NCBI RefSeq assembly: GCF_044647545.1
Contig: NZ_CP172818.1
Strand: one strand, 5' to 3'
DNA length: 64,000 bases
DNA from: Escherichia coli
GTDB lineage: Bacteria; Pseudomonadota; Gammaproteobacteria; Enterobacterales; Enterobacteriaceae
Made by a program: the position numbers and the translations under genes. This document shows positions 1-31,076 of the stretch, piece after piece (position 1 is the first letter of the stretch; the number at the start of each line of letters is the position of its first letter). The notes below the pieces were generated by a model. That model did not search any database and was not told the DNA's origin. It was given only the letters and a program-made list of their open reading frames with translations.

Positions 1-350
1 CTGATAAAATCCCAGGTCATGTCATCGGCAAATCCGGGCGTTTCATCCTGTTCGTTCAGGTAATGCCAGAACTGGGAAAAATGCGTGATATCGGCGTACA
101 GCCATTTATCCATTTTCCCCAGCGCATAAATCAAACGCAGCGCAACATCAATATCGTCAAGCGGGCCGCTTTGGGCGAGTAACGGCTTCACTGCATATTC
201 GACGATCTCTTCATCGTTATCGACAAACAGCGACGGCAGAAACTGGCGTATCCCCTGGAGCAAAATAGAATGCGCAGTTTTCATAAATGAAAATAAATTG
301 TCCTGTGCGTCCAGTTGCTCAAGCACATCATCTTCTGTCAGCGTCGCCAT
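1..350 (-). CDS. fumE: FumE/YggD (MtlR-like fumarase E), N-terminal part; gene runs off the window start
   Basis: Minus-strand translation from ATG at 350-348 gives MATLTEDDVLEQLDAQDNLFSF..., consistent with E. coli YggD; synteny with yggF. Confidence 0.8.
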   Translation of the reverse strand, partial: MATLTEDDVLEQLDAQDNLFSFMKTAHSILLQGIRQFLPSLFVDNDEEIVEYAVKPLLAQSGPLDDIDVALRLIYALGKMDKWLYADITHFSQFWHYLNEQDETPGFADDMTWDFI

Positions 351-371
351 TGGTCTTCCGATAGATCACCA

Positions 372-1337
372 TCAATGCAGGGAGTCTATTATATTACACG
401 TTTGGTCCGCGCCGCCGATCAGTAATGTCTGCGTCCGCACCCCATTCGCCGTCTGTTGGATACCGTTCACCAACTCGCCACCCGTCACGCCCGTAGCGCT
501 AAAGAGGATATCGTTCCCCCTCACCAGTTCATCGAGCGAGTACACACGGTTAACGTCAACGCCCATTGCCTTGCAACGCTTGCGCTCCTGCTCTGCAATC
601 TGCCGATTTTCCGTGTAATCCCCTTTAGCCTGACAAAAGTCAATCAGCTGGGCCTGCATATCCCCGCCTAATGCTTTAACGGCACAGGCAGAAATCACGC
701 CTTCTGGCGCACCGCCGATGGTGTACATCACATCGTAAGGATTATCCTGCCAGCAGGTCAGCACGCTGGCGGCGACATCGCCATCCGGCAGAGCGAAAAC
801 CTTCACGCCCAGCTGTGTTGCTTCTTCAATCGCGGCACTCAGGCGCGGTTTATCCAGCGTAACCATGCGCAGCTTGTCCAGCGGTTTGCCTAACGCTTTC
901 GCCACGTTGCGCAGGTTGTCCACCAGTGGCAAAGACAGATCAATCGCGCCCGCCGCCAGCCGATTAACAACCAGTTTTTTCATATACATATCGGGAGCGT
1001 GTAGCAGGCTGCCTCGTGGGGCGAAGGCCATGACTGCCAGCGCATTGCTCTGCCCCATCGCCACCATCCTGGTGCCTTCAATCGGATCAACCGCGATATC
1101 GACTTCTGGCCCATCGCCTTTGCCCACCTCTTCGCCAATCCACAGCATCGGCGCATGGTCAATTTCTCCTTCGCCGATAACCACTCGTCCACGAAAAGCG
1201 ACGTCGTTTAATGCCTGGCGCATCGCGGTGACCGCCAGGCCATCAATTTTATTTTTGTCGCCACATCCGGTTTGCGGCCAGGCAGCCAACGCTGCCTGTT
1301 CCGTAACGCGAAATAATGGCCACGCCAGGGACATCAT
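372..1337 (-). CDS. yggF: Fructose-1,6-bisphosphatase class II paralog YggF
   Basis: 321 aa ORF, GlpX-family sequence, expected position next to yggP/cmtAB. Confidence 0.9.
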   Translation of the reverse strand: MMSLAWPLFRVTEQAALAAWPQTGCGDKNKIDGLAVTAMRQALNDVAFRGRVVIGEGEIDHAPMLWIGEEVGKGDGPEVDIAVDPIEGTRMVAMGQSNALAVMAFAPRGSLLHAPDMYMKKLVVNRLAAGAIDLSLPLVDNLRNVAKALGKPLDKLRMVTLDKPRLSAAIEEATQLGVKVFALPDGDVAASVLTCWQDNPYDVMYTIGGAPEGVISACAVKALGGDMQAQLIDFCQAKGDYTENRQIAEQERKRCKAMGVDVNRVYSLDELVRGNDILFSATGVTGGELVNGIQQTANGVRTQTLLIGGADQTCNIIDSLH

Positions 1338-2611
1338 TGCGCGGCCTCCCCGATATCAACGCCAAATTGCGCCAGCAGATATTTCTCGGCCTGCTCATTC
1401 CAGATGCCGTGCGTTTCCTCAACCAGCCGCGCCAACTCTTTAAACAGCGGATCGGTTTTGCCTTTTTCGGCAAAATCGGCAATGGCAGTGAGCGGCATGG
1501 TCACGCCGTTATAAATGAGTTTTTTACCGCCTGGGATATCCGGCAGATTGAGCACGGTTTCTGGCACCGCATCCAGGCCACCAATATGGGTCACCATAAA
1601 CGACGGCTGTAACTGCCCCGTGGCGCTAAGGGCAATCGCCTCTTTCATGTCGTCCGTTGAACCGCCAGATGTACCGACGACGTGCGTGCTGTTGTAATGG
1701 ACGTTGTAGAAATTAAACGGCACTTTGAAGTTTTTATCCGTCGGCCCGGCAAAGAAGTTCAGGCAGCCATCTTCCGCCAGTAATTCGTCAGCCATCTCAA
1801 CGACAGCAGGCACCGCCGCATAAACAAAAATGTCATCGAACCCGACATCTCCTGTCAGCGCCCGCAGCTTCTGTACCGGATCGCTCATCCCTTTGGTATT
1901 CACATACACCAGCTCAATGCCTTTACTGGCCGCCAGCTCCACCGGCAGCAGCTTCTGTACCTGCGCCAGGCGTTTGTCGTCGATATCGACCACCACCACC
2001 CGCGACGGTTGTATACCGCCGTTAATGGCGTAATCGATAGCGCCAATGCCCATTGGGCCAGCACACGCCAGCAGTGCAATATTGCCGCCAGGTTTGACGC
2101 CCATGCGATGCTCATAAACATATTGCGTGGTGTGATAATTGGCATGATAAGCGCCAATAATGCAGCACATAGGCTCTGCCAGCGACGCCGCAGCAAAATA
2201 AGAGCCGTGATAGGGTAATACGCAGCCCAGGTTAATGGCGATCTCGGGAATAATCATATAGGTGGCGTTACCGCCAAAATATTCGTAGCTGTAGCCCGCT
2301 GAATATCCGCCTGGTAACCCCATCGCCGGTTGCAATACAAAACGCTGGCCTTTTTTATATTTGTCGGTGAGATTTTTACCCACTTCAACAATAACCCCGG
2401 CACATTCATGCCCGGTAATGACCGGATGATTTTCTAAATCGTCGGGTACGCGTTTATGTTCACTACCGAGTAACGCCGCTTTCTAGGTCGATAAACAGAC
2501 GCTGTCAGAAATTACACTCACTAACAGTTCATTATCGGTAATTTCTGGCAGTTCAAATTCGCGCAGACGGACATCCCGCTTGCCATAAATAGCAGCAACT
2601 TTGGTTTTCAT
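1334..2611 (-). pseudogene. yggP: Putative zinc-type dehydrogenase YggP interrupted by an in-frame amber codon (TAG at 2483-2485 on the coding strand)
   Basis: Reading frame from ATG at 2611 (MKTKVAAIYGKRDVRL...SVCLST*) stops at TAG, then continues in the same frame as the 349 aa ORF 1334-2383; total length 425 codons as in K-12 yggP. Confidence 0.75.
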
Positions 2612-2625
2612 TTTTACCTCTGTAA

Positions 2626-4014
2626 TCAGTGTTTATGTTCGGCGGTTAATTGATTAAATAAAGTGTCGAGTTTGGGATCGCCAATATAGTTATTAATCAG
2701 TATCAGCGGTTTATCCGTCACACGTTTCACGCGCCCTTCCAGACTAGCGTGAGTAACGACGATATCCGCATCCGCAGGCACGTTTTCTATCGCGTAATGT
2801 TTTACTTCAATTGCCAGCCCCGCTTTTTCCAGGCGTTTACGGAAGGTGGTTGCGCCCATCGCGCTGGAGCCCATCCCCGCATCGCAAACAAAGGCGATAC
2901 GCTTAACTCTGCTTAGCGAGAATGCACCCTCTTGTTTCATCGCCTTAACCGCATTGGCTGACTGAGCAAACTCATCTTCGCTCTCCGTTTCCACCGTTTT
3001 TTCCATCTTCAGTATCAGCGAAGTGATAGCAAAGGACACCAGGGTACCTACCGTAACACCAGCAATTGTCGCCAGGAATGAGCCTTTCGGCGTCAGCGCC
3101 AGGTAAGCAAAGATAGACCCCGGACTTGGGCCAGCCACCAGACCACCGTCCAGTAAGTTAAACATCCAGGTGCCAGACATACCGCCCGCAATCATGGCAA
3201 TAATGGTCAGCGGCTTCATCAGCACATATGGGAAATACAGTTCGTGGATCCCACCGAGGAAGTGAATAATCATCGCCCCGGGCGCAGAACGTTTACTCAT
3301 CCCTTTACCAAACAAGGTAAACGCCAGCAGCAGCCCCAGGCCCGGACCTGGGTTAGAGGCCACCATAAAGAAGATGGATTTACCGTTAACCGAAGCCTGT
3401 TGCATTCCCAGCGGATAATAGACGCCCTGATCGATCGCATTATTAAGGAAAAGCACTTTCGCCGGTTCATTGATGACTGACAGCAGAGGCAGATAACCCG
3501 CATGTACCAGCGCCTCAATACACTCTTTGACGAAAGTATTGGCAATTAACACCGCCGGGCCGATCACTTCAAAACCCAGCAGACAAAGGAGCATCCCCGC
3601 GATACCTAATGAGAAGTTATTGATAACCATCTCAAAACCAGCAGGTATGCGTTTTTCCAGTGCCTTATCGACATATTTTATGACCAGCCCACCGAGCGGC
3701 CCCATAATCATTGAGCCAAGGAACATCGGGATCTCTGCGCCGACGATCACACCAATAGTACCAATTCCGCCCATGACCGCGCCGCGTTTACCGCCGACCA
3801 GATGACCACCGGTAGAACCAATCATCACGGGCAATAAATAGGTAATCATCGGGCCGACAATTTTGGCGAAATGTTCGTTAGGCAGCCAACCGGTGGGAAT
3901 AAATAACGCAGTAATAAAACCCCAGGCAATAAAAGCACCAATATTGGGGATGACCATTGCAGTCAAAAAGCCCCCAAAAGCCTGGACCTTTGCACGAGCA
4001 GACTTGTTTTCCAT
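2626..4014 (-). CDS. cmtA: Cryptic mannitol-type PTS enzyme IICB
   Basis: 462 aa ORF, PTS EIIC/EIIB sequence, synteny. Confidence 0.92.
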   Translation of the reverse strand: MENKSARAKVQAFGGFLTAMVIPNIGAFIAWGFITALFIPTGWLPNEHFAKIVGPMITYLLPVMIGSTGGHLVGGKRGAVMGGIGTIGVIVGAEIPMFLGSMIMGPLGGLVIKYVDKALEKRIPAGFEMVINNFSLGIAGMLLCLLGFEVIGPAVLIANTFVKECIEALVHAGYLPLLSVINEPAKVLFLNNAIDQGVYYPLGMQQASVNGKSIFFMVASNPGPGLGLLLAFTLFGKGMSKRSAPGAMIIHFLGGIHELYFPYVLMKPLTIIAMIAGGMSGTWMFNLLDGGLVAGPSPGSIFAYLALTPKGSFLATIAGVTVGTLVSFAITSLILKMEKTVETESEDEFAQSANAVKAMKQEGAFSLSRVKRIAFVCDAGMGSSAMGATTFRKRLEKAGLAIEVKHYAIENVPADADIVVTHASLEGRVKRVTDKPLILINNYIGDPKLDTLFNQLTAEHKH

Positions 4015-4041
4015 AATATTATCCTGTAGAGGAGAGAGTAA

Positions 4042-4485
4042 TTATCCGCGGCTGATAATGTCCGCTAATTGTTTTTCTGATGATGCTGTTAAGAGTTGTT
4101 CGAGTATTTCTTCTTCGCACAGTAATTCACTTAACGCCTGAATAGCGCCAATGTGCGAATCGGCATCGGCAGCAGAGAGTCCGATGAGTAATTTAATTGG
4201 TTCGTCATTCCCCGGAAAATAAACACCTTGTTCAAGTAATGTCAAAGACATCCCGGTTTTAAGCGCCCCACATTCCGGTCGCGCATGAGGCATTGCCACG
4301 CCTGGTGCGAGAATATAATAAGGGCCATTGTTAATGGTGGAATCTTTAATTGCCTGAATGTAATTCTCGCTGATATAGTTTTTATCCAGCAATGATACCA
4401 TCGAGAAATCGATAGCTTCCTGCCAATCTTTTGCTGAATGTATAACTGAGATTGATGATTCTGGAAAATAATCACTAAGCCGCAT
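4042..4485 (-). CDS. cmtB: Cryptic mannitol-type PTS enzyme IIA
   Basis: 147 aa ORF, PTS EIIA-type sequence, directly upstream of cmtA. Confidence 0.9.
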   Translation of the reverse strand: MRLSDYFPESSISVIHSAKDWQEAIDFSMVSLLDKNYISENYIQAIKDSTINNGPYYILAPGVAMPHARPECGALKTGMSLTLLEQGVYFPGNDEPIKLLIGLSAADADSHIGAIQALSELLCEEEILEQLLTASSEKQLADIISRG

Positions 4486-4839
4486 AAATTATCCTTATTT
4501 TATTTTTAGGGTACCGTCCGGCGGTAAAAATAAAATACTCGTGCGGTTTAATGAAAGCAATTGAGAAGAAAAACCCCATAAACCAAAATAATAAAACCTT
4601 AAATAACAACAATATGAAATTGATATTTTTAAAGTCAACTTTGTATTTGTTATATTTATCACAAAATCAACATTTTGTTTGTTATTGTATTTGTGATGCA
4701 TATCTCTATTTATTTATTGAATGTTCGAAAACATACTTTTCTAATGCAATGTTTTTTCGCTATACCCCTTTATAGATTCTGAATTCTCACCTGTCGGCTA
4801 TTTTCTCCTTACCTCATGTGACATATTCCCCATTTTACT

Positions 4840-5320
4840 CAAAAAAAATTTATATAAAAGCACCTTTTTCATAAACCTTATTTCCCCCAAAAAAATCTTT
4901 TTTTATCCCTTTGGGCGTTTTTCCTGTTTTTTCCCCCTTTTTTTCTTTTTTACCCCTTAAAAAAAGGAACGCGGCATTTTTTTGCCCTACGAAAAAATCG
5001 TAAAATTTGCCGAGCCGGGTCTGGGTTTTAAGATCCCGTTTTTGAAAAGGGGAAAAAAATTTCCACCCGTAATAAGGCGGGGGTTTATCAGGGATTAAAG
5101 CCTTCAACCCCCCACCAGAAACCGGCAAAAAAAAAAATTGAGTGAGCTTCCACATAAAAAATTCAGAAAAAGGCGCGGTTTATACCACCTACAACACCAT
5201 TGAAGCATTAAAAGATCGTCTGATTGTCCGTCAGTTGCCAACTCAACTGGAGAATTCCCATATACATACAACTACAAAACAACAAACATAAACAAAACCC
5301 ACAAAAAAAAATATCTCTAA
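4840..5320. other. Low-complexity, homopolymer-rich non-coding block in the cmtB-tktA intergenic space
   Basis: Runs of A8-A11, T7-T9, C5-C6, G5; no ORF support; spacer is about 890 bp, which I recall as much shorter in K-12. Confidence 0.6.
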
Positions 5321-5323: not shown

Positions 5324-5349
5324 AATAAAAAGGGCCGCTTTCGCGGCCC
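5324..5349 (-). terminator. Rho-independent terminator downstream of tktA
   Basis: GGGCCGC-GAAA-GCGGCCC hairpin followed by T-run on the minus strand, just past the tktA stop. Confidence 0.75.
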
Positions 5350-5371
5350 TTCTCACAAAGCATCTTACCGA

Positions 5372-7363
5372 TTACAGCAGTTCTTTTGCTTTCGCAACAA
5401 CGTTGTCAACGGTGAAGCCGAACTCTTCAAACAGCAGCTCTGCCGGAGCAGATTCACCGAAGGTGGTCATGCCGACGATAGCACCGTTCAGGCCAACATA
5501 CTTGTACCAGTAGTCAGCAATACCCGCTTCCACCGCAACGCGTGCAGTAACCGCTTTCGGCAGGACGGATTCACGGTAAGCCGCATCCTGCTTGTCGAAT
5601 GCATCGGTAGACGGCATGGAAACCACGCGCGCCTTCACGCCTTCGGCAGTCAGTTTTTCGTAGGCAGCAACCGCCAGTTCAACTTCCGAACCGGTCGCGA
5701 TGAAGATCAGTTCCGGCTGACCGGCACAGTCTTTCAGCACATAACCACCGCGCGCGATGTTTGCCAGCTGCTCTTCAGTACGCTCCTGCTGCGCCAGGTT
5801 CTGACGGGAGAGGATAAGCGCAGTCGGGCCGTCCTGACGCTCAACGCCGTATTTCCATGCCACTGCAGATTCAACCTGGTCACACGGACGCCATGTAGAC
5901 ATGTTCGGGGTCACGCGCAGTGAAGCGACCTGCTCAACCGGCTGGTGAGTCGGGCCATCTTCGCCCAGACCGATGGAGTCGTGGGTGTAAACCATCACCT
6001 GACGCTGTTTCATCAGCGCAGCCATACGTACGGCGTTACGTGCGTATTCCACGAACATCAGGAAGGTGGAGGTGTACGGCAGGAAGCCACCGTGCAGGGA
6101 GATACCGTTAGCAATCGCGGTCATACCGAACTCGCGAACACCGTAGTGGATGTAGTTACCCGCAACATCTTCGTTGATTGCTTTAGAACCAGACCACAGG
6201 GTCAGGTTAGACGGTGCCAGGTCAGCAGAGCCGCCGAGGAATTCCGGCAACAGCGGGCCGAACGCTTCAATCGCATTCTGAGACGCTTTACGGCTGGCGA
6301 TTTTCGCCGGATTAGCCTGCAGTTTAGCGATGAATTCTTTCGCTTTGGCATCGAAGTCAGACGGCATTTCGCCTTTCATACGGCGGGTAAATTCAGCGGC
6401 TTCCTGCGGATAAGCTTTCGCGTAAGCAGCGAATTTCTCGTTCCATGCGGATTCTTTCGCCTGGCCTGCTTCTTTCGCATCCCACTGAGCATAGATTTCA
6501 GACGGGATTTCGAACGGTGCATATTTCCAGCCCAGCTGTTCGCGGGTCAGGGCAATTTCAGCGTCGCCCAGCGGCGCACCGTGGGAGTCGTGCGTACCGG
6601 CTTTGTTCGGTGAACCGAAACCGATGATGGTTTTGCACATCAGCAGGGACGGTTTGTCAGTCACTGCGCGCGCTTCTTCTACTGCGCGTTTGATGGATGC
6701 CGCGTCATGACCGTCGATGCCGCGAATAACGTGCCAGCCGTAAGCTTCGAAACGCATTGCGGTGTCGTCGGTGAACCAGCCTTCAACGTGACCATCGATA
6801 GAGATACCGTTGTCATCGTAGAACGCAATCAGTTTACCCAGCTTCAGCGTACCCGCCAGAGAACAAACTTCGTGGGAGATGCCTTCCATCATGCAGCCGT
6901 CGCCCATGAAGGCGTAGGTGTAGTGGTCGACGATGTCGTGGCCCGGACGGTTAAACTGCGCCGCCAGCGTTTTTTCTGCAATCGCCATACCGACTGCGTT
7001 GGCAATACCCTGACCCAGCGGACCTGTAGTGGTTTCCACGCCAGCGGTGTAACCCACTTCCGGGTGGCCCGGAGTTTTAGAGTGCAGCTGACGGAAGTTT
7101 TTCAGTTCTTCCATCGGCAGATCGTAACCGGTGAGGTGCAGCAGGCTGTAGATCAGCATGGAGCCGTGGCCGTTGGACAGCACGAAGCGGTCACGGTCAG
7201 CCCAGGACGGATTCTGCGGGTTGTGTTTCAGGAAATCACGCCACAGGACTTCGGCAATGTCAGCCATACCCATAGGGGCACCCGGGTGACCGGATTTGGC
7301 TTTCTGTACTGCGTCCATGCTCAGCGCACGAATAGCATTGGCAAGCTCTTTACGTGAGGACAT
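5372..7363 (-). CDS. tktA: Transketolase 1
   Basis: ORF 5372-7393; start placed at [14 protein letters not shown] (ATG 7363-7361), 663 aa. Confidence 0.95.
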
Positions 7364-7640
7364 TTTGACTCCAGATCGGATGATGAAGGGCACGCCCTTA
7401 ACGACTTGACGACAGCGCGTTTTGGGCTACGCCGGAAAATTTGCCAACAATTTACCGCAAGCCGCGCGTCATGTACATGGAACATCCTTTTGCCGCTTCA
7501 GAAATCTCTGGATCATGCTCGCATGTTGCGCAATCTGCTCGCCCGTCCGCTGCGCTTTTCCTTATACTGAGACTGAGCGTCGATTCACCTGCAAACGGCG
7601 CATTTTTAGAATAATCCTGACCTTGTGCGGAAGAGAAAAC

Positions 7641-8399
7641 ATGAAAATTCGCGCCTTATTGGTAGCAATGAGCGTGGCAACGGTACTGACCGGTTGCCAG
7701 AATATGGACTCCAACGGACTGCTCTCATCAGGAGCGGAAGCTTTTCAGGCTTACAGTTTGAGTGATGCGCAGGTGAAAACCCTGAGCGATCAGGCATGTC
7801 AGGAGATGGACAGCAAGGCGACGATTGCGCCAGCCAATAGCGAATACGCTAAACGTCTGACAACTATTGCCAATGCGCTAGGCAACAATATCAACGGTCA
7901 GCCGGTGAATTACAAAGTGTATATGGCGAAGGATGTGAACGCCTTTGCAATGGCTAACGGCTGTATCCGCGTCTATAGCGGGCTGATGGATATGATGACG
8001 GATAACGAAGTCGAAGCGGTGATCGGTCACGAGATGGGGCACGTAGCGTTGGGCCATGTGAAAAAAGGGATGCAGGTGGCACTTGGTACAAATGCCGTAC
8101 GAGTAGCTGCGGCCTCTGCGGGCGGGATTGTCGGCAGTTTATCTCAATCACAACTCGGTGATCTGGGCGAGAAATTAGTTAATTCGCAATTCTCCCAGCG
8201 CCAGGAAGCAGAAGCCGATGATTATTCTTACGATCTTCTGCGCCAACGCGGCATCAGCCCGGCAGGTCTTGCCACCAGCTTTGAAAAACTGGCGAAGCTG
8301 GAAGAAGGCCGTCAAAGCTCAATGTTTGACGACCATCCAGCATCCGCCGAACGCGCCCAGCATATTCGCGATCGTATGAGCGCGGATGGAGTTAAGTAA
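7641..8399 (+). CDS. loiP: Outer-membrane lipoprotein metalloprotease LoiP (YggG), M48 family
   Basis: Start at MKIRALLVAMSVATVLTGC (lipobox); HEMGH zinc motif in translation; 252 aa. Confidence 0.9.
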   Translation: MKIRALLVAMSVATVLTGCQNMDSNGLLSSGAEAFQAYSLSDAQVKTLSDQACQEMDSKATIAPANSEYAKRLTTIANALGNNINGQPVNYKVYMAKDVNAFAMANGCIRVYSGLMDMMTDNEVEAVIGHEMGHVALGHVKKGMQVALGTNAVRVAAASAGGIVGSLSQSQLGDLGEKLVNSQFSQRQEAEADDYSYDLLRQRGISPAGLATSFEKLAKLEEGRQSSMFDDHPASAERAQHIRDRMSADGVK

Positions 8400-9430: not shown

Positions 9431-9528
9431 TTGGATTTGCGAAACACAAGTATGCGCTAATTATCGCCTTAAATGAAAAGAGGGCCGCATCAAGGACTAA
9501 CACAGGTCCCATACCACCAAACTCCAAC

Positions 9529-11542
<2,014 letters not shown>

Positions 11543-11550
11543 AGCGAACC

Positions 11551-11682
11551 TCAAATTATTTTATTAAGTGTAAAACAGTTAACGACTATCGCAGCCTGGA
11601 ACTGCGATAACAACCCATAAGCACATGGATTTTCCAGCAGTGAATGCTGACGCTCCAACTGCGCAACCGGTTTCTTTTTCAT
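11551..11682 (-). CDS. yqgB: Small protein YqgB (43 aa) upstream of speA
   Basis: Minus-strand translation [43 protein letters not shown]. Confidence 0.7.
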
Positions 11683-11817
11683 AACATTATTAAGCACATA
11701 ACCGAACGTAAGTGTGACAGTTCGGCGAAACCACGAGAAAACTCTTGTTTTTACAAGAGCGCCCTTGTTCAGTCCTCAGTAACTGTAACCAGCTCTTGAA
11801 TCCTGAGAAGCGCCGAG

Positions 11818-12033
11818 ATGGGTATAACATCGGCAGGTATGCAAAGCAGAGATGCAGAGTGCGGGGAACGAATCTTCACCAGAACGGTGAGACAGGTTAA
11901 GCAGCAGACAACGGTTCATTATTTCGTATCACCTCCACGGCCGCCTGTTAAGACGAACCCACAAGCCAAAACTCTGATTTCAACCCGGCTGGAAGTGGCA
12001 ACACGAAAGAAACGTCGTGTGCTTTTTATTTAA
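11818..12033 (+). CDS. yqgC: Small uncharacterised ORF YqgC (71 aa)
   Basis: ORF in expected position between speA and metK; recognition from memory only. Confidence 0.4.
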
Positions 12034-12296
12034 GCCGCGCGCCGCGTTTTATACCCCACAATGGCAGAAAATTGCAAAAGATAAATACGCAGAATGCCAG
12101 CATTGTCAGGAAAAATTTCCAGCCACGTTTTTAAAAGAATGAGACACGATTCAAAAAAAAGTGGAAATCGGGTGAAGAATTGACCTAAAATAGCCATCCA
12201 GATGTTAATCCATCCATACCGATTAACACTCAGACTGCCAGTGTTTTTAACCTGCAGAGTCGTGGTAGGATCCGCTACCACAGAAAATCCACACAA
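12030..12296 (-). CDS. yqgD: Small uncharacterised ORF, possibly YqgD
   Basis: 88 aa ORF overlapping the metK upstream region; weak. Confidence 0.3.
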
Positions 12297-12336
12297 CAGT
12301 TTGAGCTAACCAAATTCTCTTTAGGTGATATTAAAT

Positions 12337-13491
12337 ATGGCAAAACACCTTTTTACGTCCGAGTCCGTCTCTGAAGGGCATCCTGACAAAATTGCTGACC
12401 AAATCTCTGATGCCGTTTTAGACGCGATCCTCGAACAGGATCCGAAAGCACGCGTTGCTTGCGAAACCTACGTAAAAACCGGCATGGTTTTAGTTGGCGG
12501 CGAAATCACCACCAGCGCCTGGGTAGACATCGAAGAGATCACCCGTAACACCGTTCGCGAAATTGGCTATGTACATTCCGACATGGGCTTTGACGCTAAC
12601 TCCTGTGCGGTTCTGAGCGCTATCGGCAAACAGTCTCCTGACATCAACCAGGGCGTTGACCGTGCCGATCCGCTGGAACAGGGCGCGGGTGACCAGGGTC
12701 TGATGTTTGGCTACGCAACCAATGAAACCGACGTGCTGATGCCAGCGCCTATCACCTATGCACACCGTCTGGTACAGCGTCAGGCTGAAGTGCGTAAAAA
12801 CGGCACTCTGCCGTGGCTGCGCCCGGACGCGAAAAGCCAGGTGACTTTCCAGTATGACGACGGCAAAATCGTTGGTATCGATGCTGTCGTGCTTTCCACT
12901 CAGCACTCTGAAGAAATCGACCAGAAATCGCTGCAAGAAGCGGTAATGGAAGAGATCATCAAGCCGATTCTGCCGGCTGAATGGCTGACTTCTGCCACCA
13001 AATTCTTCATCAACCCGACCGGTCGTTTTGTTATCGGTGGCCCGATGGGTGACTGCGGTCTGACTGGTCGTAAAATTATCGTTGATACCTACGGCGGCAT
13101 GGCACGTCACGGTGGTGGTGCATTCTCTGGTAAAGATCCATCAAAAGTGGACCGTTCCGCAGCGTACGCAGCACGTTATGTCGCGAAAAACATCGTTGCT
13201 GCTGGCCTGGCCGATCGTTGTGAAATTCAGGTTTCCTACGCAATCGGCGTGGCTGAACCGACCTCTATCATGGTGGAAACTTTCGGTACCGAGAAAGTGC
13301 CTTCTGAACAACTGACTCTGCTGGTACGTGAGTTCTTTGACCTGCGTCCATACGGTCTGATTCAGATGCTGGATCTGCTGCACCCGATCTACAAAGAAAC
13401 CGCAGCATACGGTCACTTTGGTCGCGAACATTTCCCGTGGGAAAAAACCGACAAAGCGCAGCTGCTGCGCGATGCTGCCGGTCTGAAGTAA
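12337..13491 (+). CDS. metK: S-adenosylmethionine synthetase
   Basis: Start at [18 protein letters not shown]; 384 aa. Confidence 0.97.
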
Positions 13492-13513
13492 TCTTTCTTC
13501 ACCTGCTTTCAAA

Positions 13514-13542
13514 GGCCAGCCTCGCGCTGGCCTTTTTCTTTT
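13514..13542 (+). terminator. Rho-independent terminator of metK
   Basis: GGCCAGC-CTCGC-GCTGGCC hairpin followed by TTTTTCTTTT. Confidence 0.8.
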
Positions 13543-13828
13543 ACCTCACCGCGGTGGATAGGCGTTCACGCGGCATCCGGCAAAAAGCTGCCCGCACAAT
13601 AACATCATTCTTCCTGAACACGTTTTACCGCAAATTATCATCGCTACTGAAACCGATTACACCAACCACACCAGACAAAGATTTGTAATATTTTCATATT
13701 ATTATTCGGTTTTCACAGTTGTTACATTTCTTTTCAGTAAAGTCTTAATTGCAGATAACAGCGTTTAATCTATGATGATATAACTCAATTATTTTCATGC
13801 ACTTAAATCATAACTAAGATAAATGTTA

Positions 13829-13844
13829 GTGTAAGCGATTACAC
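13829..13844. promoter_or_regulatory. Gal operator-like palindrome (GalR/GalS site) in the galP promoter
   Basis: GTGTAAGCGATTACAC, near-perfect palindrome matching the gal operator pattern. Confidence 0.6.
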
Positions 13845-13847
13845 TGA

Positions 13848-13863
13848 TGTGATTTGCTTCACA
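13848..13863. promoter_or_regulatory. CRP consensus site in the galP promoter
   Basis: TGTGA-TTTGCT-TCACA, full match to TGTGA-N6-TCACA. Confidence 0.6.
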
Positions 13864-13926
13864 TCTTTTTACGTCGTACTCACCTATCTTAATTCACAAT
13901 AAAAAATAACCATATTGGAGGGCATC

Positions 13927-15321
13927 ATGCCTGACGCTAAAAAACAGGGGCGGTCAAACAAGGCAATGACGTTTTTCGTCTGCTTCCTTGCTGCTCTGGC
14001 GGGATTACTCTTTGGCCTGGATATCGGTGTAATTGCTGGCGCACTGCCGTTTATTGCAGATGAATTCCAGATTACTTCGCACACGCAAGAATGGGTCGTA
14101 AGCTCCATGATGTTCGGTGCGGCAGTCGGTGCGGTGGGCAGCGGCTGGCTCTCCTTTAAACTCGGGCGCAAAAAGAGCCTGATGATCGGCGCAATTTTGT
14201 TTGTTGCCGGTTCACTGTTCTCTGCGGCTGCGCCAAACGTTGAAGTACTGATTCTTTCCCGCGTTCTGCTGGGGCTGGCGGTGGGTGTGGCCTCTTATAC
14301 CGCACCACTGTACCTGTCAGAAATTGCGCCGGAAAAAATTCGCGGCAGTATGATCTCGATGTATCAGTTGATGATCACTATCGGGATCCTCGGTGCTTAT
14401 CTTTCTGATACCGCCTTCAGCTACACCGGTGCATGGCGCTGGATGCTGGGTGTGATTATCATCCCGGCAATTTTGCTGCTGATTGGTGTCTTCTTCCTGC
14501 CAGACAGCCCTCGTTGGTTTGCCGCCAAACGCCGTTTTGTTGATGCCGAACGCGTGCTGCTGCGCCTGCGTGACACCAGCGCGGAAGCGAAACGTGAACT
14601 GGATGAAATCCGTGAAAGTTTGCAGGTTAAACAGAGTGGCTGGGCGCTGTTTAAAGAGAACAGCAACTTCCGTCGCGCGGTGTTCCTTGGCGTACTGTTG
14701 CAGGTAATGCAGCAATTCACCGGGATGAACGTCATCATGTATTACGCGCCGAAAATCTTCGAACTGGCGGGTTATACCAACACTACCGAGCAAATGTGGG
14801 GGACGGTGATCGTCGGCCTGACTAACGTACTCGCCACCTTTATCGCAATCGGCCTTGTTGACCGCTGGGGACGTAAACCAACGCTAACGCTGGGCTTCCT
14901 GGTGATGGCTGCTGGCATGGGCGTACTCGGTACAATGATGCATATCGGTATCCACTCTCCGTCGGCGCAGTATTTCGCTATCGCCATGCTGCTGATGTTT
15001 ATTGTCGGTTTTGCCATGAGTGCCGGTCCGCTGATTTGGGTACTGTGCTCCGAAATTCAGCCGCTGAAAGGCCGCGATTTTGGCATCACCTGCTCCACCG
15101 CCACCAACTGGATTGCCAACATGATCGTTGGCGCAACGTTCCTGACCATGCTCAACACGCTGGGTAACGCCAACACCTTCTGGGTGTATGCGGCTCTGAA
15201 CGTACTGTTTATCTTGCTGACATTGTGGCTGGTACCGGAAACCAAACACGTTTCGCTGGAACATATTGAACGTAATCTGATGAAAGGTCGTAAACTGCGC
15301 GAAATCGGCGCTCACGATTAA
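13927..15321 (+). CDS. galP: Galactose:H+ symporter (MFS)
   Basis: Start at [17 protein letters not shown]; 464 aa. Confidence 0.96.
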
Positions 15322-15397
15322 TCTCCTCAGGCTTCCTCCCGTCGCGGAGGAAGCCACCTCTTGCAGTCATCTTTTCTTCGCTCTATCCTCTGCCGCT

Positions 15398-15895
15398 ATG
15401 AAAACATCCCGTCTCCCTATCGCCATCCAACAGGCCGTTATGCGTCGCCTGCGGGAAAAACTCGCCCAGGCCAACCTGAAGCTAGGACGTAACTACCCGG
15501 AGCCAAAACTCTCTTACACCCAGCGCGGCACCTCCGCCGGAACAGCCTGGCTGGAAGGCTATGAAATTCGCCTCAATCCCGTTTTGCTGTTGGAAAACAG
15601 TGAAGCCTTTATTGAAGAAGTGGTGCCGCACGAACTGGCACATTTGCTGGTATGGAAACATTTCGGCCGCGTAGCACCACATGGCAAAGAGTGGAAGTGG
15701 ATGATGGAAAGCGTGCTGGGCGTTCCCGCCCGTCGTACGCATCAGTTTGAACTGCAATCCGTGCGCCGCAACACCTTCCCCTACCGCTGTAAGTGCCAGG
15801 AACATCAGCTTACCGTACGCCGCCATAATCGCGTAGTTCGTGGCGAAGCCGTCTATCGCTGTGTTCACTGCGGCGAACAGCTGGTTGCGAAATAA
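15398..15895 (+). CDS. sprT: SprT (YggI) zinc-metallopeptidase-like protein
   Basis: 165 aa ORF with HELAH motif. Confidence 0.9.
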
Positions 15896-15989
15896 CCACC
15901 TGAACTATCAGGAACTTTCCTGACCTGGCTGATTGCATACCAAAACAACTTTCGCTACGTTGCTGGCTCGTTTTAACACGGAGTAAGTG

Positions 15990-16697
15990 ATGTACCGTTA
16001 TTTGTCTATTGCTGCGGTGGTACTGAGCGCAGCATTTTCCGGCCCGGCGTTGGCCGAAGGTATCAATAGTTTTTCTCAGGCGAAAGCCGCGGCGGTAAAA
16101 GTCCACGCTGACGCGCCCGGTACGTTTTATTGCGGATGTAAAATTAACTGGCAGGGCAAAAAAGGCGTTGTTGATCTGCAATCGTGCGGCTATCAGGTGC
16201 GCAAAAATGAAAACCGCGCCAGCCGCGTAGAGTGGGAACACGTCGTTCCCGCCTGGCAATTCGGTCACCAGCGCCAGTGCTGGCAGGACGGTGGACGTAA
16301 AAATTGCGCCAAAGATCCGGTCTATCGCAAGATGGAAAGCGATATGCATAACCTGCAACCGTCAGTCGGCGAGGTGAATGGCGATCGCGGCAACTTTATG
16401 TACAGCCAGTGGAATGGCGGCGAAGGCCAGTACGGTCAATGCGCCATGAAGGTCGATTTCAAAGAAAAAGCTGCCGAACCACCAGCGCGTGCACGCGGTG
16501 CCATTGCGCGCACCTACTTCTATATGCGCGACCAATACAACCTGACACTCTCCCGCCAGCAAACGCAGCTGTTCAACGCATGGAACAAGATGTATCCGGT
16601 TACCGACTGGGAGTGCGAGCGTGATGAACGCATCGCGAAGGTGCAGGGCAATCATAACCCGTATGTGCAACGCGCTTGCCAGGCGCGAAAGAGCTAA
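15990..16697 (+). CDS. endA: Periplasmic DNA-specific endonuclease I
   Basis: Start at [12 protein letters not shown] (signal peptide), GGAG RBS 7 nt upstream; 235 aa. Confidence 0.93.
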
Positions 16698-16776
16698 CCT
16701 ACACTAGCGGGATTCTTTTTGTTAACCCCTACCCCACGCGTACAACCGCGTGGGGAGACGACGCGGATTTTTAACT

Positions 16777-17508
16777 ATGCGTATCCCCCGCATTTATCAT
16801 CCTGAACCACTGACCAGCCATTCTCACATCGCGCTTTGCGAAGATGCCGCCAACCATATCGGGCGCGTACTGCGCATGGGGCCGGGGCAGGCGTTGCAAT
16901 TGTTTGACGGCAGCAACCAGGTCTTTGACGCCGAAATTACCAGCGCCAGCAAAAAAAGCGTGGAAGTGAAGGTGCTGGAAGGCCAACTCGACGATCGTGA
17001 ATCTCCGCTGCATATTCACCTCGGTCAGGTGATGTCGCGTGGCGAAAAAATGGAATTTACTATCCAGAAATCGATCGAACTCGGTGTAAGCCTCATTACG
17101 CCACTTTTTTCTGAACGCTGCGGCGTTAAACTGGATAGTGAACGTCTGAACAAGAAGCTCCAGCAGTGGCAGAAGATTGCAATTGCTGCCTGTGAGCAGT
17201 GTGGTCGTAACCGGGTGCCGGAAATCCGTCCAGCGATGGATCTGGAAGCCTGGTGTGCAGAGCAGGATGAAGGACTGAAACTGAATCTTCACCCGCGCGC
17301 CAGTAACAGCATCAATACGTTGCCGTTACCGGTTGAACGCGTCCGCCTGCTGATTGGCCCGGAAGGCGGTTTATCGGCAGATGAAATTGCCATGACTGCC
17401 CGCTATCAATTTACTGATATCCTGTTGGGACCTCGCGTTTTGCGTACAGAGACAACTGCGCTCACCGCCATTACCGCGCTACAAGTACGATTTGGCGATT
17501 TGGGCTAA
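16777..17508 (+). CDS. rsmE: 16S rRNA m3U1498 methyltransferase
   Basis: Start at [12 protein letters not shown]; 243 aa. Confidence 0.92.
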
Positions 17509-17520
17509 CGGAGAAGAATA

Positions 17521-18471
17521 ATGATCAAGCTCGGCATCGTGATGGACCCCATCGCAAACATCAACATCAAGAAAGATTCCAGTTTCGCTATGTTGCTGGA
17601 AGCACAGCGTCGTGGTTACGAACTTCACTATATGGAGATGGGCGATCTGTATCTGATCAATGGCGAAGCCCGCGCCCATACCCGCACGCTGAACGTGAAG
17701 CAGAACTACGAAGAGTGGTTTTCGTTCGTCGGTGAACAGGATCTGCCGCTGGCCGATCTCGATGTGATCCTGATGCGTAAAGACCCGCCGTTTGATACCG
17801 AGTTTATCTACGCGACCTATATTCTGGAACGTGCCGAAGAGAAAGGGACGCTGATCGTTAACAAGCCGCAGAGCCTGCGCGACTGTAACGAGAAACTGTT
17901 TACTGCCTGGTTCTCTGACTTAACGCCAGAAACGCTGGTTACGCGCAATAAAGCGCAGCTAAAAGCGTTCTGGCAGAAACACGGCGACATCATTCTTAAG
18001 CCACTGGACGGTATGGGCGGCGCGTCGATTTTCCGCGTGAAAGAAGGCGATCCAAACCTCGGCGTGATTGCCGAAACCCTGACTGAGCATGGCACTCGCT
18101 ACTGCATGGCGCAAAATTACCTGCCAGCCATTAAAGATGGCGACAAACGCGTGCTGGTAGTGGATGGCGAGCCGGTGCCGTATTGCCTGGCGCGTATTCC
18201 GCAGGGGGGCGAAACCCGTGGCAATCTGGCTGCCGGTGGTCGCGGTGAACCTCGTCCGCTGACGGAAAGTGACTGGAAAATCGCCCGTCAGATTGGGCCG
18301 ACGCTGAAAGAAAAAGGGCTGATTTTTGTTGGTCTGGATATCATCGGCGACCGTCTGACTGAAATTAACGTCACCAGCCCAACCTGTATTCGTGAGATTG
18401 AAGCAGAGTTTCCGGTGTCGATCACCGGAATGTTAATGGATGCCATCGAAGCACGTTTACAGCAGCAGTAA
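17521..18471 (+). CDS. gshB: Glutathione synthetase
   Basis: 316 aa ORF, ATP-grasp sequence. Confidence 0.96.
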   Translation: MIKLGIVMDPIANINIKKDSSFAMLLEAQRRGYELHYMEMGDLYLINGEARAHTRTLNVKQNYEEWFSFVGEQDLPLADLDVILMRKDPPFDTEFIYATYILERAEEKGTLIVNKPQSLRDCNEKLFTAWFSDLTPETLVTRNKAQLKAFWQKHGDIILKPLDGMGGASIFRVKEGDPNLGVIAETLTEHGTRYCMAQNYLPAIKDGDKRVLVVDGEPVPYCLARIPQGGETRGNLAAGGRGEPRPLTESDWKIARQIGPTLKEKGLIFVGLDIIGDRLTEINVTSPTCIREIEAEFPVSITGMLMDAIEARLQQQ

Positions 18472-18579
18472 CCCACCTTAGCGAGAAGGATCTCGTTGAG
18501 ACTCTGAGTGACAGCGCCCTTCTTTCCACGCATACTGGGCGCTGTTGCTTTTTTGAACCAGGAAACAGAACCTCTGACA

Positions 18580-19143
18580 ATGAATTTACAGCATCACTTT
18601 CTTATTGCCATGCCTGCTCTCCAGGATCCGATTTTCCGTCGTTCCGTGGTCTACATTTGCGAACATAATACCAATGGTGCAATGGGGATCATCGTCAACA
18701 AGCCGCTGGAAAATCTCAAAATTGAAGGGATTCTGGAAAAGCTGAAGATCACGCCGGAGCCGCGTGATGAATCAATCCGTCTGGATAAACCGGTTATGCT
18801 CGGCGGTCCGCTGGCTGAAGATCGCGGGTTTATTTTGCATACTCCGCCCTCCAATTTTGCTTCCAGCATTCGCATTTCAGACAACACGGTGATGACCACT
18901 TCCCGCGATGTGCTGGAAACGCTCGGCACCGATAAACAACCGTCTGACGTATTGGTGGCTCTGGGTTATGCCTCCTGGGAGAAAGGTCAACTGGAACAAG
19001 AAATTCTCGATAACGCGTGGCTAACGGCCCCGGCAGATCTGAATATTCTGTTCAAAACGCCGATTGCCGACCGCTGGCGCGAGGCGGCAAAACTGATTGG
19101 TGTGGATATTCTCACCATGCCTGGTGTGGCAGGACACGCCTGA
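18580..19143 (+). CDS. yqgE: UPF0301 protein YqgE
   Basis: Start at [14 protein letters not shown]; 187 aa. Confidence 0.9.
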
Positions 19144-19559
19144 TGAGTGGAACCTTACTCGCCTTCGACTTCGGTACCAAAAGCATTGGTGTAGCGGTCG
19201 GCCAACGCATTACCGGCACCGCTCGCCCATTGCCTGCAATTAAAGCACAGGACGGTACGCCGGACTGGAATCTCATCGAACGTTTACTGAAAGAGTGGCA
19301 GCCGGACGAAATCATCGTTGGTTTGCCGCTGAATATGGATGGCACCGAGCAACCATTGACTGCCAGAGCCCGTAAATTTGCCAACCGTATTCATGGCCGT
19401 TTCGGTGTTGAAGTAAAGCTCCATGACGAGCGTCTTAGCACCGTGGAGGCACGTTCCGGTCTGTTTGAACAGGGCGGCTATCGGGCGCTCAACAAAGGCA
19501 AAGTTGACTCTGCCTCTGCGGTTATTATTCTCGAAAGCTATTTCGAGCAGGGATATTAA
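19143..19559 (+). CDS. ruvX: Holliday-junction resolvase-like RNase RuvX (YqgF)
   Basis: Start at [20 protein letters not shown], overlapping the yqgE stop; 138 aa. Confidence 0.93.
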
Positions 19560-19599
19560 GGCGATTTAAAAGCCTGGCGGATAGTCGTACCATCCCGCC

Positions 19600-19745
19600 A
19601 TCTTGCCGGATGCGGCGTGAACGCCTTATCCAGCACACATCTGGCAGCGGCTGTAGGTCTGATAAGACGCGTTAGCGTCGCATCAGACGTTTATTGCCGG
19701 GTGCTGCGTTTGTATGCCTGATAAGCGTAGCGCATCAGGCATATT
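19600..19745. repeat. REP/BIME palindromic repeat cluster
   Basis: Tandem GCCGGATGCGGCGTGAACGCCTTATCC / GCCTGATAAGCGTAGCGCATCAGGC units between ruvX and yggR. Confidence 0.8.
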
Positions 19746-19771
19746 TACTAAACTAATCAATCACTTTAGCC

Positions 19772-20752
19772 TCACAAACGTCCTTCCCCCACCCGCTGCT
19801 GATAACTCTGCTGAAACGTTAACATCCCCACCTGCTGCCCGGTTTGAATAACATGCGGCAACTGGTGGGTTTTCCCTTCGCGAATCAAATTCCCCACCGC
19901 GGGAGTGTTAATCAGTAATTCAAACAGCGCCACGCGTCCTTCCTGTTTATCCACTTCCAGCTTTTGTGACAGCACTGCCCGTAAACTACCCGCCAGTTGA
20001 TTACGTACGGGATCTTTTTCCTGCGCCGGAAATGAATCCACCAGTCGCTCAACTGCCTGCGCGGCACCACGCGTATGTAAAGTTGCCAGCACCAGGTGTC
20101 CGGTTTCTGCTGCCGTCAGCGCCAGACGGATTGTCTCGCTGTCACGCAGCTCTCCGAGCAAAATCACATCGGGATCTTCCCGCAATGCGGCCCGCAATCC
20201 CGATGCGAACGTCATACAGTGCAAACCAATCTCCCGCTGCTGGATCAAACATCGCTGGCTGGCATAGAGATATTCCACAGGATCTTCCAGCGTCAGAATA
20301 TGCGCATCGGCATGTTGATTGAGATAGCCAACCATCGCCGCCAGCGTGGTAGATTTGCCGCTCCCCGTCGCCCCCGTCACCAGAATCAGGCCATTCTCGC
20401 TCTTGAGTAATTCCGGCAATACCGGTGGCGCACCAAGCTGTTCGAGCTGTGGACAGTGCGAAGGTAACAACCGTAATGCCAGAGAAATACCTTGCCGTTG
20501 CGCGAACGCACTGCCACGCAACCGCTGATTTTCCGCCAGCGACACAGCAAAATCCAGCTGACCATTCTCCAGCAATATTGCCCGCTGATCGTCATCCAGC
20601 CACTCCCGCAGTAGCTCTTCGACGCCCGGCGCATCAAACGGCGCAGCTTCCATTCGCCCGCGAATACGCCATCGTGCGGGCCAGGCGCTGCACAGGTGTA
20701 GATCCGAGACGTTATGCTTTACACTAAGGGCCACAATTTCTTCCATATTCAT
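19772..20752 (-). CDS. yggR: PilT-like type IV pilus retraction ATPase homolog
   Basis: Start at MNMEEIVALSVKHNVSDLHL; Walker A GATGSGKST; 326 aa. Confidence 0.9.
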   Translation of the reverse strand: MNMEEIVALSVKHNVSDLHLCSAWPARWRIRGRMEAAPFDAPGVEELLREWLDDDQRAILLENGQLDFAVSLAENQRLRGSAFAQRQGISLALRLLPSHCPQLEQLGAPPVLPELLKSENGLILVTGATGSGKSTTLAAMVGYLNQHADAHILTLEDPVEYLYASQRCLIQQREIGLHCMTFASGLRAALREDPDVILLGELRDSETIRLALTAAETGHLVLATLHTRGAAQAVERLVDSFPAQEKDPVRNQLAGSLRAVLSQKLEVDKQEGRVALFELLINTPAVGNLIREGKTHQLPHVIQTGQQVGMLTFQQSYQQRVGEGRL

Positions 20753-20769
20753 ACTAAGATCCTCGGAAA

Positions 20770-21474
20770 ATGAACGATATTGCGCATAACCTGGCACAGG
20801 TCCGGGACAAAATCTCAGCGGCTGCAACGCGTTGCGGCCGTTCTCCAGAAGAAATTACGCTGCTTGCAGTCAGTAAAACAAAACCTGCGAGCGCCATCGC
20901 AGAAGCCATTGATGCCGGGCAGCGTCAATTTGGTGAAAACTACGTTCAGGAAGGGGTAGATAAAATTCGCCACTTTCAGGAACTGGGCGTAACAGGATTA
21001 GAATGGCATTTTATTGGCCCGTTGCAGTCTAATAAAAGCCGCCTGGTGGCAGAGCATTTCGACTGGTGTCATACCATCGACCGTTTGCGCATTGCTACCC
21101 GCCTCAACGATCAGCGCCCGGCAGAACTTTCCCCTCTTAACGTACTGATTCAAATTAATATTAGTGATGAAAACAGTAAGTCCGGGATTCAACTGGCAGA
21201 ACTGGACGAGCTGGCAGCTGCGGTCGCTGAACTACCGCGTTTACGTCTGCGCGGGCTGATGGCAATCCCTGCGCCTGAGTCAGAATATGTAAGGCAGTTT
21301 GAAGTTGCACGCCAAATGGCTGTAGCATTTGCCGGACTGAAAACGCGCTACCCGCATATCGACACGCTCTCTCTGGGAATGTCGGACGATATGGAAGCCG
21401 CCATTGCGGCAGGTAGCACGATGGTTCGTATCGGCACTGCAATTTTTGGTGCGCGTGATTACTCTAAAAAATAA
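20770..21474 (+). CDS. yggS: PLP-homeostasis protein YggS
   Basis: 234 aa ORF. Confidence 0.93.
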   Translation: MNDIAHNLAQVRDKISAAATRCGRSPEEITLLAVSKTKPASAIAEAIDAGQRQFGENYVQEGVDKIRHFQELGVTGLEWHFIGPLQSNKSRLVAEHFDWCHTIDRLRIATRLNDQRPAELSPLNVLIQINISDENSKSGIQLAELDELAAAVAELPRLRLRGLMAIPAPESEYVRQFEVARQMAVAFAGLKTRYPHIDTLSLGMSDDMEAAIAAGSTMVRIGTAIFGARDYSKK

Positions 21475-21491
21475 GGAATTAAAGGAACGCC

Positions 21492-22058
21492 ATGAATACG
21501 TTGACTTTCCTGCTTTCAACGGTCATTGAGCTGTATACCATGGTGCTGTTATTACGCATCTGGATGCAGTGGGCTCATTGTGATTTTTACAACCCCTTCT
21601 CACAGTTTGTGGTGAAGGTAACGCAGCCAATTATCGGGCCACTGCGCCGCGTTATTCCGGCAATGGGTCCCATTGATAGCGCCTCGCTGCTGGTTGCGTA
21701 CATTCTCAGTTTCATCAAAGCCATCGTGCTGTTTAAAGTGGTGACCTTCCTGCCAATCATCTGGATTGCCGGTTTACTGATTCTGCTGAAAACCATCGGC
21801 CTGCTGATTTTCTGGGTCCTGCTGGTGATGGCGATTATGAGCTGGGTAAGCCAGGGTCGTAGCCCGATTGAATACGTGCTGATTCAGCTGGCAGATCCGC
21901 TGCTGCGCCCGATTCGCCGCTTGCTACCGGCAATGGGTGGGATTGATTTCTCGCCGATGATCCTCGTTCTGCTGCTGTATGTCATCAATATGGGTGTCGC
22001 AGAAGTATTACAGGCAACCGGAAACATGCTGCTGCCGGGGCTGTGGATGGCGTTATGA
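21492..22058 (+). CDS. yggT: YggT inner-membrane protein
   Basis: 188 aa hydrophobic ORF. Confidence 0.9.
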
Positions 22059-22345
22059 GTGCCGTAACAGTTAATGATGACGGTCTGGTTTTACGGCTCT
22101 ATATTCAGCCGAAAGCCAGCCGTGATTCTATTGTCGGTTTACATGGCGACGAGGTAAAAGTCGCCATTACCGCGCCGCCGGTTGACGGCCAGGCCAACAG
22201 CCATCTGGTGAAGTTTCTCGGTAAGCAATTCCGGGTTGCCAAAAGCCAGGTGGTGATTGAAAAAGGCGAACTTGGCCGCCACAAACAAATTAAAATCATT
22301 AATCCGCAACAAATCCCGCCAGAAATCGCGGCGTTAATTAATTAG
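22055..22345 (+). CDS. yggU: UPF0235 protein YggU
   Basis: Start at [13 protein letters not shown] overlapping the yggT stop; 96 aa. Confidence 0.88.
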
Positions 22346-22352
22346 GTATCAT

Positions 22353-22946
22353 ATGCAAAAAGTTGTCCTCGCAACCGGCAATGCCGGTAAAGTGCGTGAG
22401 CTGGCGTCGCTGCTTAGCGACTTCGGTCTTGATATCGTGGCCCAAACAGACCTCGGCGTAGATTCCGCTGAAGAAACCGGCCTGACCTTTATTGAAAACG
22501 CGATTCTGAAAGCGCGCCATGCGGCAAAAGTGACCGGTTTACCGGCAATTGCCGACGACTCCGGTCTGGCGGTAGATGCGCTGGGTGGCGCGCCGGGTAT
22601 TTACTCCGCGCGTTATTCCGGTGAAGACGCGACCGATCAAAAGAATCTGCAAAAACTGCTGGAAACGATGAAAGACGTACCGGACGACCAACGTCAGGCG
22701 CGTTTCCACTGCGTGCTGGTATATCTGCGTCACGCGGAAGATCCCACTCCGCTGGTATGCCACGGTAGCTGGCCAGGCGTGATTACTCGTGAACCAGCGG
22801 GCACTGGTGGCTTTGGTTATGATCCAATCTTCTTCGTACCTTCCGAAGGGAAAACCGCTGCCGAACTGACCCGCGAAGAAAAGAGCGCCATTTCCCACCG
22901 TGGTCAGGCGTTGAAACTGCTGCTGGACGCTTTACGTAATGGTTAA
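22353..22946 (+). CDS. rdgB: Non-canonical purine dNTP pyrophosphatase
   Basis: 197 aa ORF, Ham1 family. Confidence 0.95.
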
Positions 22947-25262: not shown

Positions 25263-25265
25263 AAA

Positions 25266-26273: not shown

Positions 26274-26355
26274 CCGAAAACCCTCGCGCGGAATAATTTA
26301 TTCCGGTGATTATCATCAGGGTAATGAAAATTGGCAATGGACGTAAGTCTGAAGT

Positions 26356-26382
26356 GAAAAAGCCCCGGCACGATACCGGGGC
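26356..26382 (-). terminator. Rho-independent terminator of ansB
   Basis: GCCCCGG-tatcgtg-CCGGGGC hairpin followed by TTTTTC on the minus strand. Confidence 0.8.
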
Positions 26383-26389
26383 GAGGTGA

Positions 26390-28331: not shown

Positions 28332-28399
28332 AGTCTTCCCTCAAGAACAAATCAGGCCAGCATTTGCTGGCCCCAGATTGATAACAAAGTGCGCGTTTT

Positions 28400-30797: not shown

Positions 30798-31076
<279 letters not shown>

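Follow-up and report, generated by a model that had tools for sequence, protein, structure and literature searches.

Deamination of 5-methylcytosine at Dcm sites, which is countered by Vsr very-short-patch repair, is a classic cause of amber hotspots in Escherichia coli. Hotspots of this kind were reportedly located at Dcm sites of lacI by Coulondre and colleagues in 1978. There, the inner C of CCAGG changes to T, giving CTAGG and an amber codon, the change recurs, and the host possesses both dcm and vsr. In these respects the lacI hotspots resemble the yggP locus described here. The two cases differ in the strand and the codon concerned: in lacI, CAG (Gln) becomes TAG on the coding strand, whereas in yggP the methylatable C lies on the non-coding strand, and TGG (Trp) becomes TAG. 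They also differ in the source of the evidence: the lacI hotspots came from a selection experiment, while the yggP amber codon was seen in natural populations and from sequence alone.

The closest described counterpart of the gene itself is yggP of E. coli K-12 (b4465, YP_026187.1), which occupies the same locus, with the same neighbours, start, length and ADH_N/ADH_zinc_N domains, and differs in having TGG at codon 43 and being intact. Within the MDR superfamily, sorbitol dehydrogenase (1pl6, 3qe3) and ketose reductase (1e3j) have the GroES-like and Rossmann layout and the Cys...GHE motif in common with YggP, although the relationship of YggP to the polyol/ketose-phosphate dehydrogenases of the superfamily is distant (E about 1e-9). 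YggP is named "L-sorbose 1-phosphate reductase" in some sources. The literature found on YggP function consisted of incidental mentions, namely of CRP control of cmtB, of a sigma-54 site and of a Shigella gene-content list.

The window, by which we mean the whole stretch of 64,000 nt of E. coli DNA that was analysed, contains the gene order cmtB-cmtA-yggP-yggF-fumE-yggC, the same as in K-12. The features of this cluster that bear on yggP are collected in Table 1. Translated from the minus strand, yggP reads MKTKVAAIYGKRDVRLREFELPEITDNELLVSVISDSVCLST, then TAG, then KAALLGSEHKRVPDD..., so that 42 residues are followed by the amber codon and by 382 further in-frame codons, ending in ...GVDIGEAAQ. 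This TAG is the lone in-frame internal stop of the gene. The original prediction, that a single TAG splits an otherwise intact gene of 425 codons, was thus exact as described, and the translation and the list of open reading frames agree on it.

Table 1. Positions in the window of the features discussed in the text.
Feature	Position	Strand	Description	Basis
yggF	372..1337	-	class II fructose-bisphosphatase (PGAP label glpX), intact	ORF, annotation
yggP pseudogene	1334..2611	-	zinc-type medium-chain dehydrogenase/reductase, orthologue of K-12 b4465; ATG at 2611, 425 codons plus terminal TGA at 1336-1334	
Downstream ORF	1334..2383	-	349 codons; GTG start (codon 77), the first in-frame start past the stop	ORF list
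Sigma-54 binding motif	2075..2091	-	CTGGCGGCAATATTGCA, intragenic in yggP, 3' of the amber codon	motif search
N-terminal remnant ORF	2483..2611	-	42 codons from ATG	ORF list
Amber codon	2483..2485	-	TAG (CTA on the plus strand), yggP codon 43; ancestral TGG (Trp43)	sequence, relatives, K-12, Salmonella
Former Dcm site	2483..2487	+	CCAGG (plus strand)/CCTGG (coding strand), now CTAGG	sequence context
cmtA	2626..4014	-	PTS mannitol-type EIICB, intact; directly upstream of yggP, 14-nt gap	ORF, annotation of identical DNA
cmtB	4042..4485	-	PTS EIIA, intact; heads the cluster	ORF, annotation

The 1.6 kb around the stop (window 1200-2800, 1601 bp) matched 5393-5414 of the 5426 complete E. coli genomes, four of them at 100%. 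The nearest other relatives, IMT16316 and ECONIH1, showed one difference in 1601 bp, with C and not T on the plus strand at window position 2484, and therefore TGG at codon 43. In these nearest TGG relatives yggP is annotated as intact, with the product WP_022646100.1. A 33-mer centred on the T at 2484 matched four of the 5426 genomes: WP4-S18-ESBL-09 (wastewater, Tokyo), MS14385 (blood, Australia), and 4973 and EC11 (both human). The stop was present in four of about 60 close relatives. In two of the carriers, RefSeq/PGAP lists the gene as "zinc-binding dehydrogenase, pseudogene, internal stop" (H7R19_RS04485 in WP4-S18-ESBL-09 and EW040_RS04750 in MS14385), and the DNA of both is identical to window 1200-2800 including the TAG, with no difference inside yggP. 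MS14385 and ECONIH1 have been given as ST648 (PMC8454413). Among public contigs drawn from NCBI, ENA, JGI and Logan, the exact 42-aa product was found on 298 (including BBR96869.1 of WP4-S18-ESBL-09) and the exact 349-aa product on 158 (BBR96870.1).

A recent inactivating nonsense mutation was among the explanations put forward originally, and it is backed by these comparisons: K-12, Salmonella and the nearest relatives all retain the ancestral TGG, and no other base change was found over the 1601 bp. The K-12 codon was established by the comparison with reference E. coli that had been proposed as a check. The allele can be considered recent because yggP carries no second lesion. The competing explanation was a base-call or assembly error, or an artefact of the window, with TGG in the true genome. 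Such an explanation can draw on the unreliable sequence present elsewhere in the window, where there is homopolymer-smeared and poly-A filler, and whose final 7 kb amount to a noisy copy at 84-85% identity. However, window 1-4561 showed zero differences from MS14385, the T at 2484 is shared by four complete genomes that are independent of one another and come from different laboratories, and 158-298 contigs carry the exact truncated products; a random error would not recreate a circulating allele. A base-call error at 2484 was therefore rejected, and we regard an artefact of any sort at this position as scarcely credible. The TAG in yggP is a real, inherited mutation, and the allele circulates in an ST648 subclone.

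Since other parts of the window are of a different quality, they are described here separately. No verbatim copy of the window was found among the complete E. coli genomes compared. Blocks 1-4561, 5327-8398, 9566-24085 and 25266-37143 are identical to MS14385 save for three substitutions, all of them to A (26617, 26630 and 26888), which may be minor corruption or true strain differences. Small indels relative to MS14385 coincide with the block limits or fall between them (4562, 5319/5326, 8399, 8439, 24086-24096 and 37144); those at or just after the end of loiP, a deletion of 4 nt after 8399 and of 1 nt at 8439, may likewise be corruption or a strain difference. In the cmtB-tkt interval (4562-5311), all that is left of a prohibitin-family gene, which every close relative possesses, is a copy of the 5' part smeared by homopolymers (about 4840-5311; for example ...CTCaaaaaaaaTTTATATAAAAGC...), with about 490 b missing and an 8-nt deletion at 4562. 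This looks like sequence corruption and not biology. Between speB and speA (9476-9565), where relatives have a 732-nt hypothetical gene (WP_000758898.1), the window has some 90 nt of filler, including a 35-nt poly-A run (9530-9564). Between hemW and yggM (24109-25265), three TRAP-transporter genes, which take up about 3.2 kb in relatives, have given way to A-rich low-complexity text of about 1.15 kb, in which poly-A runs occupy 25208-25224 and 25248-25261 and nothing but short garbled fragments still matches.

Further along, tRNA-Phe (37068-37143) is followed directly by yghD, and the pheV island of about 87 kb found in ST648 genomes is absent. Over 37144-38791 the type II secretion operon (gspL to gspC) shows the deletion of the K-12 type, and the sequence runs colinear with that of K-12 at an identity of 97.1%; the blocks on either side, in contrast, have ST648-like SNPs and 99.9-100% identity to ST648 genomes, so that the window is a structural mosaic at this point. 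From about 56.8 to 57.9 kb the sequence is strongly G-poor, with a GC skew of -0.46 at 57-58 kb, and carries nearly repeated phrases, for instance ...cctacctccatacacc[t]cccacacc..., which stands near both 56.99 kb and 57.41 kb. Beyond 57.9 kb, up to 64000, the window copies acyl-AMP ligase, epimerase, ACP, spt and lptG/lptF-like genes at 84-85% with numerous indels; the ORFs there are broken, and none exceeds 182 aa. Compared with WP4-S18-ESBL-09 and MS14385, the window beyond yggP therefore has lineage-specific accessory segments that are missing or garbled and no pheV island. The filler, smeared and degraded stretches look artefactual, and any other findings made in such parts need checking against real genomes. 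The yggP finding is untouched by them because the gene sits in a block that is identical to real genomes.

The gene disrupted by the TAG is a conserved one. With the tryptophan restored, YggP matched PF08240 (ADH_N) at residues 26-123 with 37.1 bits (Pfam gathering cut-off 23.5), and PF00107 (ADH_zinc_N, the Rossmann domain) at residues 186-329 with 62.6 bits (gathering cut-off 31.8). None of the NCBIfam equivalog cut-offs was reached by the restored protein. In an alignment with alcohol, sorbitol and ketose dehydrogenases of solved structure, Cys39 and Gly67-His68-Glu69 fell on the conserved C...GHE motif, which supplies the zinc ligands in this family; Cys39, His68 and Glu69 are the putative catalytic zinc ligands of YggP. 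Compared to b4465, the window gene has the same ATG and the same 425 codons and is identical at 1243 of 1278 nt (97.3%, 35 nt differing). Counted by codon, this amounts to 27 synonymous and 5 non-synonymous differences plus the stop, with the amino-acid changes from K-12 to the window being V18E, G83D, S101G, M248K and A256V. The Salmonella orthologue is full length and 91% identical at the protein level, its residues 27-73, W43 included, are identical, and across K-12 and Salmonella hardly any of the N-terminal 60 residues vary. This conservation indicates that yggP is a conserved, selected gene, and that the full-length form is the native one.

Two other views of the gene were rejected on the same grounds. 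The first is that the native protein is a shorter one, made from a downstream start. K-12 and Salmonella share the upstream Met and the almost invariant N-terminus, and reference alleles, which the original prediction had considered might start at the downstream Met, in fact have the same upstream Met. The second is a general, species-wide decay of a "cryptic" gene, which is at odds with the ratio of synonymous to non-synonymous differences and with the presence of the region in nearly all of the complete genomes. The label "cryptic", as applied to yggP at the outset, is consequently only partly apt, and what speaks against it is the purifying selection on yggP across the species.

The mutation itself is a change of G to A on the coding strand (C to T on the plus strand at 2484). 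The mutated base occupies the inner, Dcm-methylated cytosine position of CCAGG, the ancestral coding strand being ACC-TGG-AAA. There are 7 Dcm sites in yggP, with 14 possible deaminations of 5-methylcytosine, and only the change at the Trp43 site gives a stop. Altogether, 141 single substitutions could produce a nonsense codon in the gene, and 16 of these are transitions. Both dcm (1419 nt) and vsr are annotated as intact in the clone genome MS14385, and a query consisting of vsr and about 290 nt of dcm found vsr and the dcm-3' segment in all four clone genomes. Taken with the recurrence described below, this makes spontaneous 5-methylcytosine deamination at a Dcm site the probable origin of the stop. 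The inner C of CCAGG would have been deaminated to leave a T:G mismatch, which would have been missed by Vsr very-short-patch repair and fixed as CTAGG. Against a Dcm origin, it should be said that any G-to-A transition at this base yields the same TAG.

Stops at Trp43 were also found outside the window allele. The 42-aa peptide with the K-12-type V18 was present on 27 contigs. In four of the six loci retrieved (L019-L022), the TAG lies in a K-12-like allele, which differs from K-12 by 1-2 nt and from the window allele by 34-35 nt. In L023 the TAG at codon 43 is found in a third allele background, and in L024 the codon has changed from TGG to TGA. Judged from the retrieved loci, the change of TGG to TAG at Trp43 recurs in at least two allele backgrounds besides that of the window. 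An amber hotspot created by Dcm would account for the appearance of one and the same change in yggP alleles that are unrelated. The TGA of L024 does not follow from Dcm chemistry and counts against such an origin, and the recurrence of a stop at Trp43 could alternatively reflect selection for loss.

A second position in yggP deserves mention in this context. Codon 101, located at another Dcm site CCAGG (2310-2314), is Gly (GGC) in the window and Ser (AGC) in K-12. The difference is the change expected of 5-methylcytosine deamination on the opposite strand and may be another footprint of Dcm in the gene; the Salmonella residue here is Ser as well.

Disruptions of other kinds were observed as well. 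In the close relative DFL.5 (NZ_CP104843.1), IS1 is inserted in yggP. A 45-aa yggP product ends in VMLPTY, and frameshifted products diverge at codon 43; the VMLPTY end presumably reflects translation into the terminal repeat of IS1. Shigella dysenteriae Sd197 has a 329-aa remnant of YggP, and in L023 cmtA is also split, into two ORFs. It appears from this survey that yggP is lost sporadically though conserved overall.

Selection for loss would mean that the mutation is real, but that its recurrence and spread are due to positive selection for the loss of YggP in the cmt-linked sugar pathway and not to neutral hitch-hiking. The occurrence of the same amber codon in three allele backgrounds, and of TGA at the same codon, is in line with such selection, as are the IS1 insertions near codon 39, the frameshifts, the truncated gene of Shigella dysenteriae and the presence of the ST648 allele on hundreds of contigs. 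These observations have to be set against the strong conservation of the gene with respect to both K-12 and Salmonella, the match of the region in 5393-5414 of the 5426 complete genomes and the restriction of the stop to four of about 60 close relatives. In addition, a Dcm hotspot alone predicts recurrence at exactly base 2484. We therefore consider positive selection unlikely as the cause of recurrence and spread. An intermediate scenario, in which Trp43 would be a Dcm-driven amber hotspot and the allele would persist in ST648 because the loss of YggP is advantageous, for instance in that a toxic sugar-phosphate intermediate is avoided, is in our opinion just as doubtful.

The remaining explanation offered by the original prediction was that the amber codon is read through, either by a suppressor tRNA or as a programmed site, and that full-length YggP is still made. 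In favour of readthrough, the rest of the yggP ORF is intact, with no second lesion, but an intact remainder is expected of any recent mutation. Suppressor alleles do occur in E. coli genomes, as the supE44 strains below show. Seven 33-mers with a mutated anticodon, derived from K-12 tRNA genes, were combined in a composite query covering supE, supF, supD, supP, trpT-CUA, supB and supC (Lys-tRNA ochre suppressors were left out), and a segment of yggP with the TAG was added to it. As a positive control, 159 genomes matched the suppressor composite, and all 60 among the matches listed were supE44 K-12 laboratory strains, including C600, DH5alpha and DH1. With the yggP segment added, the top ranks went to the four clone genomes, each of which matched at a single place, and thus none of the seven suppressor alleles was found in these four genomes by a method that detects supE44. 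No suppressor tRNA was found in the 64-kb window, where the only tRNA is a wild-type tRNA-Phe(GAA). Codon 43 is not a conserved recoding site either, being TGG in the ST648 sisters, in K-12, in Salmonella and in essentially all other E. coli. The proposal of readthrough in an amber-suppressor background has therefore found no backing, and we regard the production of full-length YggP from this allele as highly improbable.

Thus yggP in this genome is, with high probability, a recently formed pseudogene, which arose by a nonsense mutation through a single transition and represents an allele of an ST648 subclone. The 42-codon remnant ends 3 residues past the putative zinc ligand Cys39, and translation would stop ahead of the GHE motif and of the whole NAD-binding Rossmann domain. 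The 349-codon ORF contains neither Cys39 nor the GHE motif (His68/Glu69). Since the stop precedes both the GHE zinc-ligand motif and the NAD-binding domain, no functional enzyme is expected. Re-initiation would not change this picture with regard to catalysis: the first in-frame start is the GTG at codon 77, past GHE, so a re-initiated product would be devoid of the catalytic zinc site. From the position of the stop and the absence of an in-frame start between it and codon 77, we infer a loss of YggP activity.

The stop may also have consequences for the genes downstream. The ATG of yggF overlaps the TGA of yggP in the sequence ATGA (1337-1334), an arrangement that suggests translational coupling of the two genes. 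With an early stop and such an overlap, the coupling of yggP and yggF would be lost, and about 1.15 kb would be left untranslated. Rho-dependent polarity, together with the lost coupling, could then lower the expression of yggF-fumE-yggC. Two elements may partly offset this reduction. One is the GGAGG (Shine-Dalgarno) that yggF carries upstream of its own start, and the other is the sigma-54 site inside yggP. In K-12, the sigma-54 site of yggP has been described as IS35, with yggF given as the downstream gene (PMC4591121). The motif is conserved from K-12 in the window, where it overlaps another Dcm site.

As a case of gene inactivation, the yggP nonsense mutation is ordinary: it is a lineage-specific pseudogene, annotated in RefSeq and already known, and being routine it matters little in itself. 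Its uses are modest. The T at 2484, which creates the TAG, can serve as a clean single-base marker by which a subclone of the multidrug-resistant ST648 lineage is recognised. Natural isogenic material for studying the function of YggP and of the cmtBA-yggPF-fumE-yggC cluster is provided by isolates that carry the stop together with isolates that lack it. Finally, with the Dcm origin being probable, Trp43 of yggP would be a natural example of the textbook amber hotspot caused by deamination at a Dcm site, recurring in unrelated alleles.
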